Shown here in pieces: positions 18,335 to 62,758 of a stretch of 64,000 nucleotides of DNA (position 1 is the stretch's first letter; each line of letters starts with the position of its first letter). A program made the position numbers and the translations under genes. The stretch comes from Eledone cirrhosa. Lineage: Eukaryota. The notes under the pieces were generated by a model that was not told where the DNA came from, made no database searches, and was given only the letters and a program-made list of their open reading frames with translations. The stretch is from contig OZ024743.1 of assembly GCA_964016885.1 (NCBI GenBank), positions 262,074,001 to 262,138,000 of the forward strand. Direction: 5' to 3'.

Positions 18335-18685
18335 TGGATGGGACTCTATCTTCAGCCCCATCATATCATTTGATGGAACTCTATCTTCAGCTCCATCATA
18401 ACATCTGATGGGACTTTATCTCTTGCTCCATCACAACATTTGATGAGACTGTATCTTCTGCCTCTTCATAACATCATGAAGTACTCTATCTTCAGCCCCA
18501 TTATAACATCTGATGGGACTGTATCTCCTACCTTATCATAACATCTGATAGGACTCTATCTTTAGCCCTATCATAACATCTGATGGGACTCTCTCTTTAG
18601 CCCCATCATAACATCTGATGGGACTCTCTCTTTAGCCCCATCATAACATCTGATGGGACACTTTCTCCTGTTCCATCATGATATC
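18335..18685. repeat. 35-bp minisatellite, about 10 copies, each with an internal TGATGGG/CCCATCA hairpin
   Basis: Unit CATCTGATGGGACTCTATCTTCAGCCCCATCATAA. Confidence 0.9.
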
Positions 18686-19041
18686 TGTACCTTTGAGGCA
18701 AAAGATATTCATCTGGTTTAACCCTTTTGATGTCAAGCAGCCTGAAATCACCCTTAGATTTATAATGCAAACCTGTTTGTTTCAAAGTGTTTATATTTAT
18801 CTAAAATCTTCCATTATAATTTGTGTCAGAATCTTTGTTGTGTTATGTTCCAAACACCAACATAATGAGAAAGTCCATTATATTACTAAACCTCTGCAAA
18901 TTCTTGGTTATTTTCAAAAGGATTTGCAGTGCATTTCATTAGAAATATAGTAATAATTTAAATATTGACCATTTTGCTGCATATGAGTCTGCTTTGCTTC
19001 AATATTTGTGTGAGGTATGTGGTCTGAAGTTAATGCTTTAT

Positions 19042-27308: not shown

Positions 27309-28517
27309 GTGAATATACCTTCCCCTAAAAATCTGATGCAATAGGAGAAAGCAATAGCTACATACACAATGCAACCCCTTTACTGATACATCTACTATTA
27401 CAAGATTTCAATAGATGTAATTATACAAAATACCTTTTAGGTTCTTTATTCATATTTATTTGTTTGTTGATTGACTGATATTGTGAAAAAGAATAACTCT
27501 GCTGGTTGTTGGTGTTGATGTTTAGCCTCAAATCAGCTCTGAATGAACAGACCTATAAACAAACTACTTAGGAGTATATCTATGACTTTATTGTGCAGTT
27601 TGTCATTTCCTTTCCAAAAACAGTAGTGTATGATTAGAGGGAGATTTGGTTGCTTTTTCTGGCAGGTCAAAAGACTGGCTCTACTGAAGATGTTAATATA
27701 TGATAATAGCTTTAGCTTTTTGTTTATTGTAAATTTAAAATACAGCTTGTCTATTAGATGCTAGACTTGTACCAATAGCCAACATCTTGGTCAACTGAGA
27801 GTGGAGTAGGGAATTCAATGTGCTGTTTAGTCACAATAAACCCTCAGTTGTGGGTCAACTGATAATGCACCAGAGTAGGAAACAGGAGATTCTAGGTTTG
27901 ACTCCTGTCAACCTCGAGATGCTTCAGTTTTGTTGTAGTGCACCTGAGCAATGTACACTATAATTTTCATTTTAATTTTTATTATTAATAAGAATTTTGT
28001 GCTACTAGACCAGAGCTTTCCAAACTTTTCACACTGGGAACATACTTTTTAGGAATGTAATGTTCTGTAACACATTAACTCTTTTGGTATCAAACCACAT
28101 GAAATTGCCTTTAGTTCTATGATATTTGTTTGAAAATGTTTATATTTATTTAAAAAACATTTTATCATTTAAAAACATTTTATAATTTATTGCGAGATCC
28201 TTTATGTTACAAAATTAACTTAATAAGCTAATTATATTACTCAATTATCTAAATTCTTGATTATTTTTGAAATTATTGGAAATCATATGGAGTGTATTTT
28301 ACTAGAAATCTAATAAGCAAAGGGTTAATTAAGTTTTGTTTTTCATTAGTGATGCAAAATTAATGAAATTAATAGATAAACAGTTGAACATTAATATCAG
28401 GTGTCTCCATCCACATGTCTTAAGAATACATGGAATTGTCAGGTAAAAATTTGTAAAAATTGATCAGACTTCACTTAATTTTGCAATATACCTACAACTT
28501 ATTGGTGACAGATTAAA

Positions 28518-29655
28518 GTGTCTAACTACAGAGACACACAGTATAGATAGCTGTGTGATAGACTTGATACATTATAGTGTCTAACTAGAGGGGATACAGT
28601 ATAGATAGCTGTGTGATAGACTTGATACATTATAGTGTCTAACTAGAGGGGATACAGTATAGATAGCTGTGTGATAGACTTGATACATTATAGTGTCTAA
28701 CTAGAGGGGATACAGTATAGATAGCTGTGTGATAGACTTGAAACATTATAGTGTCTAACTAGAGGGGATACAGTATAGATAGCTGTGTGATAGACTTGAT
28801 ACATTATAGTGTCTAACTAGAGGGGATACAGTATAGATAGCTGTGTGATAGACTTGATACATTATAGTGTCTAACTAGAGGGGAACACAGTATAAATAGC
28901 TTTGTGATAGACTTGATACATTATAGTGTCTAACTAGAGGGGATACAGTATAGATAGCTGTGTGATAGACTTGATACATTATAGTGTCTAACTAGAGGGG
29001 ATACAGTATAGATAGCTGTGTGATAGACTTGATACATTATAGTGTCTAACTAGAGGGGATACAGTATAGATAGCTGTGTGATAGACTTGATACATTATAG
29101 TGTCTAACTAGAGGGGAACACAGTATAGATAGCTGTGTGATAGACTTGATACATTATAGTGTCTAACTAGAGGGGATACAGTATAGATAGCTGTGTGATA
29201 GACTTGATACATTATAGTGTCTAACTAGAGGGGATACAGTATAGATAGCTGTGTGATAGACTTGATACATTATAGTGTCTAACTAGAGGGGAACACAGTA
29301 TAGATAGCTGTGTGATAGACTTGATACATTATAGTGTCTAACTAGAGGGGATACAGTATAGATAGCTGTGTGATAGACTTGATACATTATAGTATCTAAC
29401 TAGAGGGGATACAGTATAGATAGCTGTGTGATAGTGTCTAACTACAGAATGTCTAACATTAAAGTGTCTAACTACAGCAGGACAGTATAGATAGCTGTGT
29501 GATAGTGTCTAACATTAAATTGTCTAACTACAAGGGGACAGTATAAATAGCTGTGTGATAGGCCTGATACACTATAGTGACTTCCAAGGGGACACAGTAT
29601 AGATATCTAGCTGTGTGATAAACCTGATACATTATATATAGATAGCTCTGTGATA
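28518..29655. repeat. 58-bp minisatellite, about 16 near-identical copies plus a degenerate tail
   Basis: Unit AGTGTCTAACTAGAGGGGATACAGTATAGATAGCTGTGTGATAGACTTGATACATTAT. Confidence 0.97.
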
Positions 29656-47936: not shown

Positions 47937-50200
47937 CAGGGGTCACCAAACTTTTTTCACAGTGGGCCGGATAACTGAAAGAATGACGAGCGCGGGCCGC
48001 ATAATCATTCTGTTCAATACTTGCAAGCCAGAATAAAAGCTCTGGGAAAAAAGACGAAACACTACGTTTAGCATTCCATGTTAATCATGGGTGAGTGGCG
48101 TGCAATGCACAAAAAACAAAGACAACCAACATATTTATTTATTAAAAAGTTATCAAAGAAGGCGATGTTAGCAAAAATATAGTTACATCAGACCTAGTGT
48201 GCACATATCCGAATCTTACAAACTAAACAGCAAAAAAGGTTAGTGAGATTTGTGAAACTGACGTTTGGCTTTCAAGATATCATCAATGTTTGGTTTGAAA
48301 TTGCTGCATCCAATCAAGAGAATTGCTTTCAAATGTTCATCAGTCAATCTCGTTCGATGTGTTGACTTCACATACTTCATTTTTGAAAATGTTTGCTCAC
48401 AGACATAAGTTGTTCCAAAAAAAGATGCCATACCAGCGGCAAATTTCTTCAATTTCGGAAACTCAACATCAGGTAAGAAGCGGTAAAATTCAACAAGTTT
48501 TCCTTCTCTGTGCTTCTCTTTCAACAAGTCTTGCAAATCAATGAGCTCCAACTGTAGTTCAACTGGCACATCATCAAGGTTACAATCAAACGGATTCTGT
48601 AACAGAAGAATGTCACTCAATTATGTCGAGATCTGAAAATCTCTAAAAAAAATGCTTCTTCAAGTCACGAATAATCTTTTTAGGAAAATCGAGGTTGACA
48701 TCTTCAGCAATTGTAACGCAAAACTCTTTGAAACAGTGAAAATAAGAGAAGTTTTCTCTTTCCAGTTGTGCTTCAAACAATGACAGCTTTCTCCGAAATC
48801 CTTTGATGATTCTGTAGAGATCACAGACGAGGTTATCCTTTCCCTGAAGTTTCAAGTTCAGTTCAATCATGTGGGATGTGATGTCGACCAAAAATGACAA
48901 CTTTGATAGCCAGGTAGGATCTGACAGCTGTGGATCAGCTCTATCTTTTTCAGCGAGAAAAATATCTATTTCGTTTTGGAGCTTGTAAAACGAAACAGGA
49001 CTTTACCGCAGCTGAGCCACCTCACTGCTGTGTGATAAGGTAAGTCACAGAAATCAGAATCAATTTCTTCAAGAAAAGCCTGGAACTGACGGTGATTGAG
49101 TGCATGTCCCCGAATGAAGTTCACAGCAGAAACGACTGGTTTCAGTACACAAGAAATATCCAAGTCTTTCCCACAGAGTGCTTGCTGATGTATGATGCAG
49201 TGTATGAACAGAGCACCCGGAATTTGCAAATCTTCCAACTGAGTCCTGATCTGCCGACCAGACCCTTCCTCACTCCAGCCATGTTTTTTCCTCCATCAAC
49301 TGTAACACCTCGAAGCTGATTCCACTGAAGGTTATAGTCTTGCAAAGTTTTCTGCACTTCCATGAAAATGTCTTTTCCAGTTGTTGTTCCATGCATGCAG
49401 CAAATGGATGCCAACTCTTCCGTTATCTGAAAGTCCAAATTGACACCACGATTGAACACAAGAAGTTGTGATGTACTCGAGAGATCAGTAGACTCATCCA
49501 GCGCCAGAGAAAACCACAAGTTCCTAGCTTTCTCGCGTATCTGTAGCACTATGGTCTCTCCAAGTTCTTCTGTTCTCCGCACAATTGAACTTGCCTAATG
49601 CCTGATACTTCCAAACAAATCGGCTTTCTCAGGACACAAGTCATTTACTGCTTCCATCATACACTCTTTGATGAAGTTGCCATCAGTAAACGGTTTTCCT
49701 CCCTCTGCCAACTTATGCACTATTTTGTAACTTGTACGAGTGACAGATTCATTTTCAGCAAACTTTCTCGTGAAGAGATTTCTTTGAGTTTCTAAACCAC
49801 GTTTCATGGACTCATATTTCTCAGAGCGTAACTTTCCAGAAAACTTTGAATATGTTGATAGATGTTTTGTTTCATGGTGATGCCGAAGATTGTACTCTTT
49901 CAAAACGGCAACACTTTTGCTGCATACGACGCAACTAGCTTTCTGGTCCTTTGTTTCCACAAAGAAGTACTTTACTCCCCATTCTTCATTGAAAACGCAA
50001 CACTCGGCGTCCACTTTTCTTTTCTTAGTAGCCATAATAAAGGGTGAAGAAAATGGGATCTGAAAATGAAAAAGACATTGAATTAGAAACATCTCGTGTT
50101 CCATCCGTTTTATCACGCAAATGCAAGTACCGTTGGTGGGCCTGATGAACTGACGTCGCGGGCCTAATCCGGTCCGCGGGCCGTAGTTTGGTGACGCCTG
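47937..50200 (-). mobile_element. Complete hAT DNA transposon (Charlie/Buster group, OC1/SPIN-like); transposase 48240-50035 frameshifted
   Basis: 16-bp TIRs CAGG(G/C)GTCACCAAACT; perfect 8-bp TSD ATCTAACT; BED finger CVVC...HHETKH, LALDESTD, TVDGGKNM, HCIIHQQALC, VRWLS, TTYVCEQTFSKMK. Confidence 0.96.
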
Positions 50201-50679
50201 ATCTAACTCATTCCATTTTTTAAATCAAAACTCTTACCCCTTTCTCTCTCTCCTTTTTCCCATCTCTCTCACTCCTCTCTTTCCTCACTTCACTCCCTTC
50301 TATCCCCCCTCCCTCTCTTTCTTCACCTCACTCTCTTTCCACTCCACTCTCCCTCTCATCTCTCTGTCTACATGGATTGTTTGCAGCCATTCCTTTCTAA
50401 ATCAAATGAATTACCTTCCTGAAACATAGAATTCATTTCTTGTATCATTGAGTGAGAAAGGGGCCACCGCAACTTGTGTTGCCATTATGCAAGTGTGACT
50501 TTAATAAATTCCTTAATATACATATATACATATATATATTTATATATATATAACCAGAATCAATTTTGTATGTGCAAGACATGGTCACCTGACCTAAGCA
50601 TTGCTCACAATAGGACAACTCGTCTAACCCATGCTAGCATGGAAAAATGGACATTAAATGGTGATGATGATGATATATG

Positions 50680-50720
<41 letters not shown>

Positions 50721-50962
50721 ATGAAATATTGTGTACAGTGCTCAGGTGCACTACAACTCATCAAAAAGTGTATGTATAGTACATAGGGTAATGTACAAAC
50801 ATTGATATATATATACACACATATATATATGTCTGTGTGTTTAATGGTAGCTATGATGCTTCCATAGGCGGTATGCCAGTTGAGCACTCTATGTTCTTAC
50901 AGAGCGGAGTGTGATATAATATAAAACGAAAAATCAGTGATGCATCTGGACTCAGTTTATTG

Positions 50963-51052
50963 TGTGTTACAATTGTTTCGCCGGCAGATAGCTTGAGACA
51001 GGATCATTGTATGGATCTGTCTGATTCTAGATCTGCAGGTTCTTCGGACACA
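50963..51052 (-). ncRNA. Type I hammerhead ribozyme motif (U4C variant, long stem II)
   Basis: UGUGU-CCGAAGA-ACCUGCAGAU...AUCUGCCGGC-GAA-ACAAUUGU-A-ACACA. Confidence 0.7.
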
Positions 51053-51612
51053 TGTAATACTCTCGGAAGGATCATTGTATGGATCTGTCTGATTCTAGAT
51101 CTGCAGGTTCTTTGGACACATGTAATACTCTCGGAAGGATCATTGTATGGATCTGTCTGATTCTAGATCTGCAGGTTCTTCGGACACATGTAATACTCTC
51201 GGAAGGATCATTGTATGGATCTGTCTGATTCTAGATCTGCAGGTTCTTCGGACACATGTAATACTCTAGGAAGGATCATTGTATGGATCTGTCTGATTCT
51301 AGATCTGCAGGTTCTTTGGACACATGTAATACTCTCGGAAGGATCATTGTATGGATCTGTCTGATTCTAGATCTGCAGGTTCTTTGGACACATGTAATAC
51401 TCTCGGAAGGATCATTGTATGGATCTGTCTGATTCTAGATCTGCAGGTTCTTCGGACACATGTAATACTCTCGGAAGGATCATTGTATGGATCTGTCTGA
51501 TTCTAGATCTGCAGGTTCTTCGGACACATGTAATACTCTCGGAAGGATCATTGTATGGATCTGTCTGATTCTAGATCTGCAGGTTCTTCGGACACATGTA
51601 ATACTCTCGGAA
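51001..51612. repeat. 68-bp tandem array, 9 copies
   Basis: Units start at 51001, 51069 ... 51545. Confidence 0.97.
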
Positions 51613-51716
51613 CAAATTTTCTCACTCTGTGGGAAAATTTGTCTCGAGCTATCTGCCAGCGAAACAATTGTAACACAAAACAAACTGAGTCCAGATGCAT
51701 CACTGATTTTTCGTTT

Positions 51717-51758
<42 letters not shown>

Positions 51759-51911
51759 TTATATATACTTATGTTATAAGATGTTGGCTGACCATGGTTG
51801 TGTATGCAACACTCCAATCAATAAATGATGATGCAATTAGGTACAAGTGCTCAACGTCAAGTGTCTCCTTCCAAATTCTATTTGGTAGTCCATGATGGGC
51901 TATATGAACAA

Positions 51912-52027
51912 TAATTGTTTCTACTTTAGGCACAAGGCCAGCAATTACCCAGTGCATTACTGGTACTTTATTTTATCGACCCTGTAAGGATGAAAGACAA
52001 AGTCAACCTCGGCGGGATTTGAATTCA
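51912..52027 (-). mobile_element. 5'-truncated major SINE with a perfect 19-bp TSD
   Basis: GGGCTATATGAACAATAAT at 51897-51915 and 52028-52046. Confidence 0.9.
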
Positions 52028-52754
52028 GGGCTATATGAACAATAATGATAATTGCAAAGGCCAGATGTAGTTATTCATGATTTATTTTATTTATAATTTC
52101 CTATAATACATATTTCTGTGGCATTAATAATTATGTAATGCTGCCATCGTGCAATTACCAGCATGAATTCACCAGACAGCATCTTAAGTAATAAAGTTAT
52201 GTAACATTTCTAATGCAATACAGGCTATCAATAAGGAGGCAGATGTATTTGATGTTGGTTCTTTGTGAGTCTGTCCCCTTCGAAAGTCCATCTTGACTGC
52301 TGAAGATCTTGGTGTTCTGTGTCTTTCGTTTGTCATTTTATTTTCAAAAACGTTTTAAAGGTTTCCCTTATTTTTTGGTTCTGCCTTGTTTACATTCGTT
52401 GTTTTCTATTTGTTAAATTTCCTAATTTTATTATTACTAATCTGTAATAAACATGTTTTTTCTTCTCTCTCAATTAACTTCAGTGTATTACATTTTTTAA
52501 CATGATATTTTACTTTCTTCTTCTTGCCTTTTTTACTTTCCTTTTCTTTCTTTACCTCCTTTTTTATCAGTCTTATGAGACTATCATTGCTATAAAAGGC
52601 ACACACACATATGTATATATATATAAATATGTATCATCATCATCATTTTACGTCCGCTTTTCCCTGCTTGCAAGGGTATATATATATGTATGTGTATATA
52701 TATATATATGTATGTGTATATATATATATATATATTTGTATATGTATGTATGTG

Positions 52755-53293
52755 TCATCATCATCATCATCATCATCGTTTAACGTCCATTTTCCACGCT
52801 AGCATAGGTCTGGATGGGAATTGTCCCACTTGAGGCAAGATTGGTTGTCTTGCTCAGGACTGTCTGGCGGGTTTTCTACGGCTGGATGCCCTTCCTAACA
52901 CCAACCACGTTTACAGTGTGGACTGGGAGGTTTTTACCGTGTTACCTACACGGCCACATTACAGCGTGGACTGTGTGTTTTATTGTCGTGACACCTACAC
53001 GTCTGGCGGGTTTTCTACGGCTGGGTGCCCTTCCCAACACCAACCACGTTTACAGTGTGTACTGGGAGGTTTTTACCGTGTTACCTGCACGGCCACATTA
53101 CAGCGTGGACTGTGTATTTTTTTTGTCGTGACAACTACACGACCTCATTTGTTTCGGACTGGATGTTGTGGTACCAACATAACTTCACATTTAAGGGGGT
53201 GGTGTGGATGGGGTGGGGGTAGTGGGGCGGGGGTGTATTTTGTTAGAGGTGCCTACTGACTGTAGGTTTCGCTTTGTACTTAGGCAAGGCGGG
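52755..53293 (-). mobile_element. RTE 3'-UTR copy with an internal duplication of about 140 bp
   Basis: Homologous to 9637-10045; the GTCTGGCGGGTTTTCTACGG block is repeated at 52862 and 53001. Confidence 0.8.
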
Positions 53294-53314
53294 ATATTTG
53301 TTTATGTATGTATG

Positions 53315-53351
<37 letters not shown>

Positions 53352-53367
53352 ATATGTATGTATGTAA

Positions 53368-53405
<38 letters not shown>

Positions 53406-53458
53406 GTATATATATATATTTGTATATGTATATATGTATGTGTATATATATATATTTG

Positions 53459-53500
<42 letters not shown>

Positions 53501-53838
53501 GCTCTTTATTTATGCACTATTTCTCCTCTTAAAGATAAAGCAATGTTCTGTTTGTTCTGATGAAAATATTATGTTCAGTGTGTTAACAATATTTTTGATT
53601 CTTCAACTGTTAAAAATTGCATTTAAATATCCATTTTGGGAAAATGCTTCATTTGTCTAAAGTGTAAAATTATGTAAAATTAAATGAAAATATTGAGTAT
53701 TATAAATCGTATTCCTGGTTTTTCCATTAGCTTCATCTATGGCCTACTTAATGTACTCACATGTCACTGGCGCCATTTTGGTCTGTTAAAAGTATGCTAT
53801 TATATATTACATTTGTAAGCACATAAATGTGTATACAC

Positions 53839-53869
<31 letters not shown>

Positions 53870-53925
53870 TGTATGTATACGCACATATATATGTATACAT
53901 ACATATATACATATATACATATATA

Positions 53926-54292
53926 TGCTTCATTGGATGTGCAATGTCAATGTGCGTGAACGACCCAGCATGGATGTGTTGAGAGAGAAACTGTGTCTGA
54001 GAGGGATAGAATGTAGTGTGCGAGAGAGGAGACTGCGATGGTATGGACATGTGATGCGCATGGAGGATGACCGATGGGTGAAGAAGTGCCAGGAAATGCC
54101 AGTTGAAGGAAGATGTTGTAGAGGTAGACCACGAAAAACATGGGCGGAGGTGGTGAGAACAGACCTCAGATCGCTGAAGCTCACGGTGGAGATGACGAAG
54201 GACCATGACAAGTGGAGAGATGCTGTGCTGAATAAGACCCGTGCCACCCTTGCAAGCAGGGAAAAGCGGACGTAAAATGATGATGATGATGA
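53926..54292 (+). mobile_element. RTE LINE 3' fragment, well preserved
   Basis: WMCNVNVRERPS...RRLRWYGHVMRM...GRPRKTWAEVVRTDL followed by a (GAT)n tail. Confidence 0.9.
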
Positions 54293-54357: not shown

Positions 54358-55740
54358 ATCATCATCAGTTTTTACATCTGCTTCTCTATGCCTGAATGTG
54401 TTGGACAACTCCTCTGCAGCACATCATGCCACACCCTGTTGCATTCCTTCCTCATCTCCTCTGTGAAGTTCAGCATCTTGAGATCACCTCTAACCACATC
54501 TGTCCAGGTCTTCCTCAGTCTTACTCTTCTACACCATCCTGAGATCACCTCTAACCACTTCTGTCCAGATCTTCCTCAGTCTTACTCTTCTACACCATCA
54601 TGAGATCAGCTCTAACCACTTCTGTCCTGTTCTTCCTCAGTCTTACTCTTATACACCATCCTGAGATCACCTCTAACCACTTCTGTCCTGTTCTTCCTCA
54701 GTCTTACTCTTCTACACCATCCTGAGCTCACCTCTAACTACTTCTGTCCAGATCTTCCTCAGTCTTACTCTTCTACACCATCCTGAGATCACCTCTAACC
54801 ACTTCTGTCCTGTTCTTCCTCAGTCTTACTCTTCTACACCATCCTGAGATCACCTCTAACTACTTCTGTCCAGATCTTCCTCAGTCTTACTCTAATACAC
54901 CATCCTGAGATCACCTCTAACCACATCTGTCCAGGTCTTCCTCAGTCTTACTCTTCTACACCATCCTGAGATCACCTCTAACCACATCTGTCCAGGTCTT
55001 CCTCAGTCTTACTCTTCTACACCATCCTGAGATCACCTCTAACCACATCTGTCCAGGTCTTCTTCAGTCTTACTCTTCTACACCATCCTAAGATCACCTC
55101 TAACCACATCTGTCCAGGTCTTCCTCAGTCTTACTCTTCTACACCATCCTGAGATCACCTCTAACCACATCTGTCCAGGTCTTCTTCACTCTTACTCTTC
55201 TACACCATCCTGAGATCACCTCTAACCACATCTGTCCAGGTCTTCCTCAGTCTTACTCTTCTACACCATCCTGAGATCACCTCTAACCACATCTGTCCAG
55301 GTCTTCTTTAGTGTCCTCTTTGTATATCTTTTATGGTCAATGCCCATGTCTTACTACCATGCAGCTTTGCATTTCATAAGCAAGCATCATAGATTCTACC
55401 ATTTGTTCAGAAAGAGAATCATTTATTAACAGCAGTGGTAGTAGATCTTTACATTTTTCGACCCATTCCTTATTTTGGTTACTATACTTTCAGAGTACTG
55501 ATTATGTCACCTAGGTAACAGATTCTCAGCTACTTCTATTTAGCCTTTCTTGAATTAGAAACAGTTTATTTCACTGGTGTTATTCACAACCCTTGTGGTA
55601 TCTGCCAAAGTCTCTTTTGTCTCTTAGCCTGCTTTTGATCACATGGCACTTTGTACAACCACTGTCTACACTGGGTAAACTGCTCCTTTTTCACAAATTC
55701 TGTATGGCCATTTCTCAGATGGTAGCATGATCTTTTATTT
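54358..55740 (-). mobile_element. Degraded RTE LINE containing the 61-bp array
   Basis: 3' end at 54358-54530; upstream remnants EVAEN..YLGD-like and QFTQCRQWLYK. Confidence 0.6.
54478..55308. repeat. 61-bp minisatellite, about 13.6 copies, derived from RTE ORF sequence
   Basis: Unit CTGAGATCACCTCTAACCACATCTGTCCAGGTCTTCCTCAGTCTTACTCTTCTACACCATC; minus strand reads RLRKTWTDVVRGDL. Confidence 0.95.
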
Positions 55741-60200: not shown

Positions 60201-60816
60201 CCCTTTAGCATTTACATTTCTCTATATTTACTATTGTATTTTTACAGAAAAGGCTTTATATGACATAATTATCTTACATTATATCAAATCTATAAGGGCG
60301 GTGGATTGCCAGTATCGGTAGAGGGTCGGACGCCAGGCTTTCCAGCATAGTTACGTCCCTTTACGATTTGAGTTCAAATCCTGCCGAGGTTGACTTTGCC
60401 TTTCATCCTTATGGGGTCGATAAAATAAAGTACCAGTAATGAACTGGGTAATTGCTGGCCTTGTGCCTAAAGTAGAAACAATTATAAAGGCGGTGGATTG
60501 GCAGTATCGGTAGAGGGTCGGACGCCATGCTTTCCAGCATAGTTACGTCCCTTTACGATCTGAGTTCAAATCCCGCCGAGGTTGACTTTGCCTTTCATCC
60601 TTATGGGGTCGATAAAATAAAGTACCAGTAATACACTGGGTAAATGCTGGCCTTGTGCCAAACGTAGAAACAATTATATCAAATTTATGAGATTTTGATA
60701 TTATTTATTTTGAGAACAATACCTTAACATAAGTATGAGTAGCCAGTTATGACCAGTTTGAACAGAAAGAGGTGAGAGAATTCTGGCTGGTTATGGCCAG
60801 TTTAAATGCTAAAAGG
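60201..60816. mobile_element. piggyBac-like MITE carrying a SINE dimer, nested in an older MITE (about 60064-60935)
   Basis: TTAA-CCCTTTAGCATTTA ... TAAATGCTAAAAGG-TTAA. Confidence 0.8.
60296..60676 (+). mobile_element. Head-to-tail dimer of the major SINE
   Basis: Two full copies at 60296-60484 and 60488-60676; one outer 19-bp TSD at 60278-60296 and 60673-60691. Confidence 0.9.
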
Positions 60817-62601: not shown

Positions 62602-62758
62602 CAGTGTATCAGAACCAAACTGATGAGAATTCCTGGGTTCCTTAGACTTCTCTAGGTATTTATTCAACAAGGTGGGACAGTGTATCAGAACCAAACTGAT
62701 GAGAATTCCTGGGTTCCTTAGACTTCTCTAGGTATTTATTCAACAAGGTGGGACAGTG
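62602..62758. repeat. Perfect 76-bp tandem duplication
   Basis: CAGTGTATCAGAACCAAACTG starts at 62602 and 62678. Confidence 0.95.

Follow-up and report, generated by a model that had tools for sequence, protein, structure and literature searches.

In the insertion units described for EN+ Penelope-like elements (PLEs), an inverted 5'-truncated copy stands beside the main copy, a tail is present at one end, and (TA)n tracts serve as targets (PMC8557442). The tail, published as 30-40 bp long, is accounted for by two reverse transcriptase (RT) start sites (PMC11167929). One clade of these elements, Hydra, is defined in section 11 of PMC8557442 and consists of elements generally shorter than 3 kb. 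PLEs also carry minimal hammerhead ribozymes, which occur as pairs 100-700 bp apart on opposite strands; these showed no activity as monomers and weak activity as dimers, and the dimers require two stem III strands (PMC4209133). In retrozymes, a whole hammerhead is present in each unit; the units measure 150-450 bp (PMC7229834), and a preprint that takes two consecutive complete motifs as its criterion proposes that retrozymes derive from pLTRs (bioRxiv 10.64898/2026.07.22.740005).

Here we describe a locus in a 64,000-bp window of the Eledone cirrhosa genome (contig OZ024743.1, 262,074,001 to 262,138,000), the whole stretch of DNA that was analysed and to whose first letter all plain coordinates refer. 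An earlier note, made from the letters alone, had described nine 68-bp units with the 5' half of a hammerhead between 87-bp inverted arms, and this description was confirmed. A 68-bp period tandem array (9.0 copies, 98% matches) occupies 51000-51612, and the arms at 50914-51000 and 51640-51726 are 87 nt each and 95% complementary, with 4 mismatches. The locus is very probably a 5'-truncated, head-to-head double pLTR insertion of a PLE, likely of the Hydra clade, in a (TA)n tract, with the array as a one-off local expansion that likely has no function. What is new is a family member of a known PLE kind that bears a one-off array. The features are as follows; family positions count from the start of the unit, which covers 1-68 and is followed by the arm at 69-155 and the tail at 156-235.

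50805-50833, no strand: left flank rich in (TA)n and (CA)n, likely the insertion target, as read from the sequence
50834-50913, minus strand: tail (80 bp) that only the left copy has, placed by the two 3'-end points of the family
50914-51000, minus strand: left arm, made of the 3' part of the pLTR and the hammerhead 3' half (stem II 3' strand, GAAA, palindromic stem III, cut site, stem I 3' strand)
50963-51052, minus strand: the sole complete type I minimal hammerhead motif, whose constrained fold lies 0.8 kcal/mol above the minimum
51001-51612, minus strand: nine tandem 68-bp copies of family positions 1-68, unique to this locus, each with the hammerhead 5' half and most of loop II
51613-51626, minus strand: 5' end of the truncated left copy (family -14 to -1), the left stem of the junction hairpin
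51629-51641, plus strand: 5' end of the inverted right copy (family -13 to -1), the right stem of the junction hairpin
51640-51726, plus strand: right arm, the 3' part of the pLTR without the tail, joined to the 5' end of its copy across a 70-bp deletion
51640-51642: TGT microhomology at the deletion join of the right copy
51717-51767, no strand: (TA)n right flank

The unit and the arm are neighbouring pieces of the pLTR (the terminal repeat) of a dispersed PLE family. When both were searched together in the animal's own 3.0 Gb genome, 2,275 first-look candidates were obtained, 40 of which were scored; at all 39 other scored places the unit and the arm form one contiguous piece with approximately 95-98% identity. 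The earlier note was therefore right that the two belong together. A 23-nt word from the arm has at least 734 exact matches genome-wide (control 0), and the full long-stem hammerhead pattern has 295 (control 0). The pattern of the unit-to-unit junction has 8 matches genome-wide, all 8 at the array locus, in an exact search that diverged arrays or arrays with other breakpoints would escape.

The 3' ends of 114 distinct copies lie at approximately position 155 (48 copies), at approximately position 235, with the tail (55 copies), or elsewhere (11 copies), and they lead into (TA)n or (CA)n. To sample copies without selection for length, we took the first 30 of the 734 matches, which gave 25 sites and 37 copies. 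By manual count, a head-to-head partner was present at 12 of the 25 sites, the tail was on one side only in 10 of these 12, and 8 of the 37 copies start at -14 to -4. Among the 114 distinct copies there are 33 inverted pairs, a few of them double-counted within a locus, and with a scripted cut-off 25 of the 33 have one long and one short 3' end. (TA)n flanks are found at the array locus and at most sampled copies. Judged from sequence, the inverted arms, the one-sided tail, the (TA)n target and the hairpin of the array locus are the usual double-ended insertion. The likeness to the EN+ PLE insertion units (PMC8557442, Fig. 2 legend; PMC11167929) extends to the head-to-head copies, the two 3' ends and the AT-rich target; what sets the locus apart is that one copy has grown internally to 9 x 68 bp and the other has lost a matching 70 bp.

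Several parts of the earlier description need to be reworded accordingly. The inverted arms do not clamp anything, being the routine second copy of a Penelope-like insertion. Their length was given correctly, but they are not the whole insertion, since the left copy runs 80 bp beyond its arm to 50834 and spans family -14 to 235. The right arm is indeed an inverted copy, but not only an arm: it belongs to a copy that runs from -13 to -1 and then from 71 to 155, with about 70 bp, almost exactly one unit, lost across TGT. The 14-bp hairpin also exists, although not as a separate feature, because it arises where the 5' ends of the two inverted copies are joined head to head.

Family positions -14 to -4 (51613-51626 in the window) are a hot spot of 5' truncation and inversion. 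In longer copies this start hot spot follows a CTAAC word and AG, and it may correspond to the 5' end of an RNA or to a splice acceptor site. On another contig, two facing arrays of a 469-bp unit (5.8 and 5.2 copies, 99-100%; L081:2379-7536, G000:C12:27748500 onward) are nested between inverted pieces of the array-locus family; units related to theirs occur singly or doubled in L064 and L071. A 37-bp tandem unit is common to two unlinked places, L020:672-800 and L152:2765-3000.

A near-full-length but broken copy of the element, L082 (G000:C4:259656500-259666499), lies on the contig of the window, at a distance of 2.5 Mb. It contains, in order, an inverted copy, a tail fragment, RT and endonuclease frames, a 3' region and a sense hammerhead. 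The open reading frame is broken into three natural frames, and the 3' region is rich in microsatellites; the element measures approximately 5.5 kb from the tail to the 3' end, and much of the excess over 3 kb is microsatellite. The frames contain the motifs RWR, DKT, YRDD, CxCX5C, VYK...YIG, CxxC and CxH, with a single cysteine between VYK and YIG and with CCHH absent. A Pfam search of four frames, including the three of L082, returned no match. Look-alikes of the L082 frames in the ESM Atlas (0.93-0.95) fall into three clusters in which 14-44% of members carry RVT_1; the clusters are animal and are partly annotated as RVT_1 and HTH_animal. The assignment of the RT in L082 rests on these motifs and look-alikes. 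The same endonuclease end is linked to hammerhead copies in L024 and L028, and five hammerhead-bearing loci (L024, L028, L063, L068 and L140) have in common either the endonuclease end or the sequence that follows the stop. The left copy in the window has three diagnostic letters in common with the L082 subfamily.

For EN+ PLE membership, an open reading frame for an RT and a GIY-YIG-type endonuclease was found sense-upstream of the pLTR in L082, together with 5' truncation and an adjacent inverted copy and with an optional tail at one end. For Hydra membership, RWK was found as RWR (K to R), along with DKT, CxCX5C, CxxC, CxH and insertion in (TA)n. By its motifs, the Penelope-like family likely belongs to the Hydra clade. 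In these features it resembles the clade of Craig et al. 2021 (PMC8557442): an RWK-like RWR, DKT, the CxCX5C linker, CxxC, CxH, no cysteine pair inside GIY-YIG, and (TA)n insertion. The Hydra hammerheads in File S2 of that paper share the layout of the family: they too lie close to the 3' end, stem II has one extra unpaired base on either side, with unpaired or mismatched positions at its foot, and stem III is a short palindrome. On the other hand, 79 of 85 family copies have C at core position 4, whereas the Hydra rows of File S2 all read ctga; stem II of the family has a 40-nt extension, the tail is 80 bp, and the long, microsatellite-rich 3' region of L082 exceeds the stated length of less than 3 kb. 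That length and the canonical hammerhead describe the clade without being strict criteria for it. Identity with Hydra-1_oBim was rejected, as the hammerhead listed for it differs from that of the family. The family adds to the clade a Hydra-like element with hundreds of copies.

Another candidate for the parent gene, an endonuclease fragment next to copy L011, was rejected: of the 19 closest other copies compared, none has a hammerhead of the array family within 1.5 kb, and 3 have a different, short-stem hammerhead, so that the fragment belongs to another family. This second, very abundant PLE family (L011:2533-2886, L031-L050) has a short-stem hammerhead with C at position 4 approximately 1.3 kb past the stop. 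A first look with its endonuclease end gave 53,638 candidates across related families.

The reverse-transcribed origin proposed in the earlier note is supported. We infer the following order of events. The endonuclease of the element would cut a TA tract, and two cDNAs would be primed, one from each break end, one at the tail end and the other 80 nt further in. Both would run to a common stop approximately 14 nt before the unit and join head to head. At the junction, the right cDNA would skip approximately 70 nt across 3 nt of microhomology, and the left cDNA would repeat nearly the same 68 nt with 1 nt of microhomology. The resulting dimer would then probably grow to nine units by replication slippage or unequal exchange in DNA. 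Since both ends of the array lie within 2 nt of the ends of the right-copy deletion, the first duplication was likely made while the junction formed. Slippage between direct repeats was rejected as the seed of the array, because the unit-to-unit junction has only 1 nt of microhomology. That a deletion and a duplication at one place have almost identical ends bears on how PLEs join two cDNAs.

It is also conceivable, but improbable, that all nine units were made in one insertion, either through eight backward jumps of the RT or through rolling-circle copying of a circle of 68 nt. The shared ends of array and deletion suit such an event too, as does the start of the array 13-14 nt from the inversion junction. 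Junction rearrangements are also seen elsewhere in the family: L147/L148 have the same fold-back followed by a microhomology jump, and an additional, incomplete unit sits at the inversion junction of L004. The divergence of the array was compared with that of the two copies. The array has 4 differences in its 612 bp, and the two copies differ from each other at 5 of 100 paired bases (conditional P 0.046; 0.012 when events are counted). This contrast is undercut by the letters shared with the L082 subfamily; the left copy has one private change in positions 69-235, a rate that also fits the array. The variants themselves argue for stepwise growth. With the units numbered from the left on the plus strand, a C>T change is common to units 2, 5 and 6, the three units with a core change of the earlier note, and one C>A is found in unit 4. 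The remaining three deaminable C positions in the two CpGs of the unit show no transition, and by arithmetic the chance of independent agreement is about 1/16. The C>T shared by three non-adjacent units favours stepwise expansion in DNA. Against one event stand also the lack of the unit junction in any other copy found and a second array (13.7 x 61 bp, 54474-55306, minus strand) 2.8 kb away, which lies in a decayed retroelement reading frame without a ribozyme, in an unrelated fragment that we take to be RTE-like; such arrays thus arise without a ribozyme. Of the earlier proposal of RT jumping or slippage, the reverse-transcribed origin is retained, while the nine-copy step leans towards stepwise expansion in DNA.

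An array found at a single locus could be an artefact of assembly, in its existence or its copy number, and in runs X2 and X3, from the same sample as X1, no contig crosses the unit junction. In run X1, one 54-nt contig crosses it without differences, with 23 and 31 letters on the two sides; it is below our standard of 31 bridging letters, and X1 may be the source of the assembly. Among the junction-spanning contigs of X1, however, one has a depth of 57.8 and one carries a variant unit. With distinct variants in the assembled units as well, an artefact is very unlikely. The RAD-seq runs X21 and X22 contain copies of the family, which bears on the family level only. No RNA data set is listed for the locus, a blank that carries no information about its expression.

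Together, the left arm and the unit beside it read as a type I hammerhead pattern on the minus strand, with the parts that the earlier note had described. Stem I is UGUGU/ACACA, and the core CCGAAGA at 51047-51041 is followed by an extra A. Stem II has 8 pairs with one mismatch and a structured loop and is followed by GAAA; stem III has 2 bp around a palindrome, and the predicted cut falls after 50968. In hammerhead residue numbering, C3-A9, G12-A14, A15.1-U16.1 and the NUH cut site are all there, save that U4 is C. When constrained to the hammerhead pattern, unit 1 and the left arm fold at -20.2 kcal/mol, near the free minimum of -21.0 kcal/mol, and 50955-51062 has a fold z of -3.13 against 200 shuffles. 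An Rfam search of 49000-54000 gave 49 hits up to E 10, none to a hammerhead family; this does not count against the motif, because such a blank is expected for minimal variants. The minimal type I hammerheads of Cervera and de la Pena 2014 (PMC4209133) have the same 5-bp stem I, long stem II, extra base after A9 and palindromic stem III, and they form opposite-strand pairs within the same 100-700 bp. Our motif, a putative ribozyme, differs from those described there in its U4C core and in an A-C mismatch in place of G10.1-C11.1.

The earlier note had further expected a transcript to present several enzyme halves to one substrate strand, and the array might by extension be a functional or selected RNA module whose 5' halves act on the one 3' half or in trans on transcripts of the family. 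That 6 of the 9 units keep the family core, and that a single unit with the arm folds as a hammerhead, is in line with such a module. The predicted folds of the minus-strand RNA all disagree with it, as none gives several units access to the 3' half. In the full fold, the predicted probability that the 3' half is paired to the antisense right arm is 0.99-1.0. The 87-bp duplex of the arms would therefore sequester it, and the antisense strand of this duplex is the first to be transcribed. Even with the right arm removed, upstream units are predicted to fail to reach it: stem II forms with the adjacent unit at 0.97 vs 0.003 or less for the other 8, and stem I is lost (0.001). The 8-nt palindrome of stem III is predicted to pair with itself at -6.4 kcal/mol; the amplified half lacks the stem III strand, and has none to offer for the dimers of PMC4209133. 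In addition, the array is confined to one locus, and the C>T shared by three units is G5A on the ribozyme strand. G5 is important in the core. We therefore give a functional module almost no credence; the array is likely the result of local nine-fold copying of a 68-base piece by accident, without function. As a single-locus accident in a dead insertion, it is of little weight itself.

The tandem units derived from the pLTR of a PLE with a type I hammerhead also recall non-LTR retrozymes (PMC7229834; bioRxiv 10.64898/2026.07.22.740005), in which tandem pLTR-related repeats contain hammerhead parts. That the locus is such a retrozyme, spread through circular RNA, is nevertheless extremely improbable, because each unit holds half a motif in 68 bp at a single locus and so fails the unit content described in those sources.

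The U4C core reaches far beyond this family. Genome-wide, exact matches to a short-stem pattern number 6,173 with C4 (control 6), 1,797 with U4 (control 5) and 230 with the product of CpG decay on the opposite strand (control 4). Among the 100 U4 matches listed, most belong to a separate 31-nt family and roughly a fifth, by eye, to a 39-nt type that otherwise has C4. The U4 matches of the C4 type are comparable in order of magnitude to these 230 decay products, in keeping with an ancestral C4; from these sequence counts, C4 looks ancestral in the families of the 39-nt type. Different families have different stem I pairs (UGUGU/ACACA, UGCU/AGCA and CGUAU/AUAUG). Over 39 distinct types the mean stem I pairing is 3.2 bp, a value reached in 0 of 2000 shuffles (2.1 bp when shuffled), although kinship inflates the contrast.

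U4C is known from a viroid as a natural variant with much reduced activity in vitro (PMC3088659), and C/T degeneracy at position 4, with CYGANGA as the descriptor, is given in PMC13481778. In the literature we found no earlier report of U4C hammerheads in PLEs, though Lunse et al. 2017 (RNA Biol 14:1499), on variants of PLE hammerheads, may already contain one, and the supplementary figures of PMC4209133 and PMC3088659 may bear on this. It is possible, and we propose it tentatively, that the PLEs of this genome have fixed a U4C core in several families, with over 6,000 copies in all, and have kept all three stems by compensatory change, and that a C4 hammerhead either works well with the protein of the element as its helper or persists as a fold that serves as a protein-binding and RT-stop signal instead of a catalyst. 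The predominance of C4 (6,173 vs 1,797 for U4) is a natural test of whether PLE hammerheads must cleave, and hammerheads with this core escape CUGANGA descriptors. The more than 6,000 short-stem CCGANGA hammerheads (for example L088-L117) have the same palindromic stem III, belong to several families and often stand in opposite-strand pairs; the separate 31-nt family keeps CUGANGA.

The window contains further local arrays at 28512-29636 (19 x 58 bp), 18337-18687 (10 x 35 bp) and 62602-62758 (2 x 76 bp), none of which has a match among the loci compared. Copies of a very common short interspersed repeat lie at 51897-52046 and 60291-60678, one of them as a 192-bp tandem pair.
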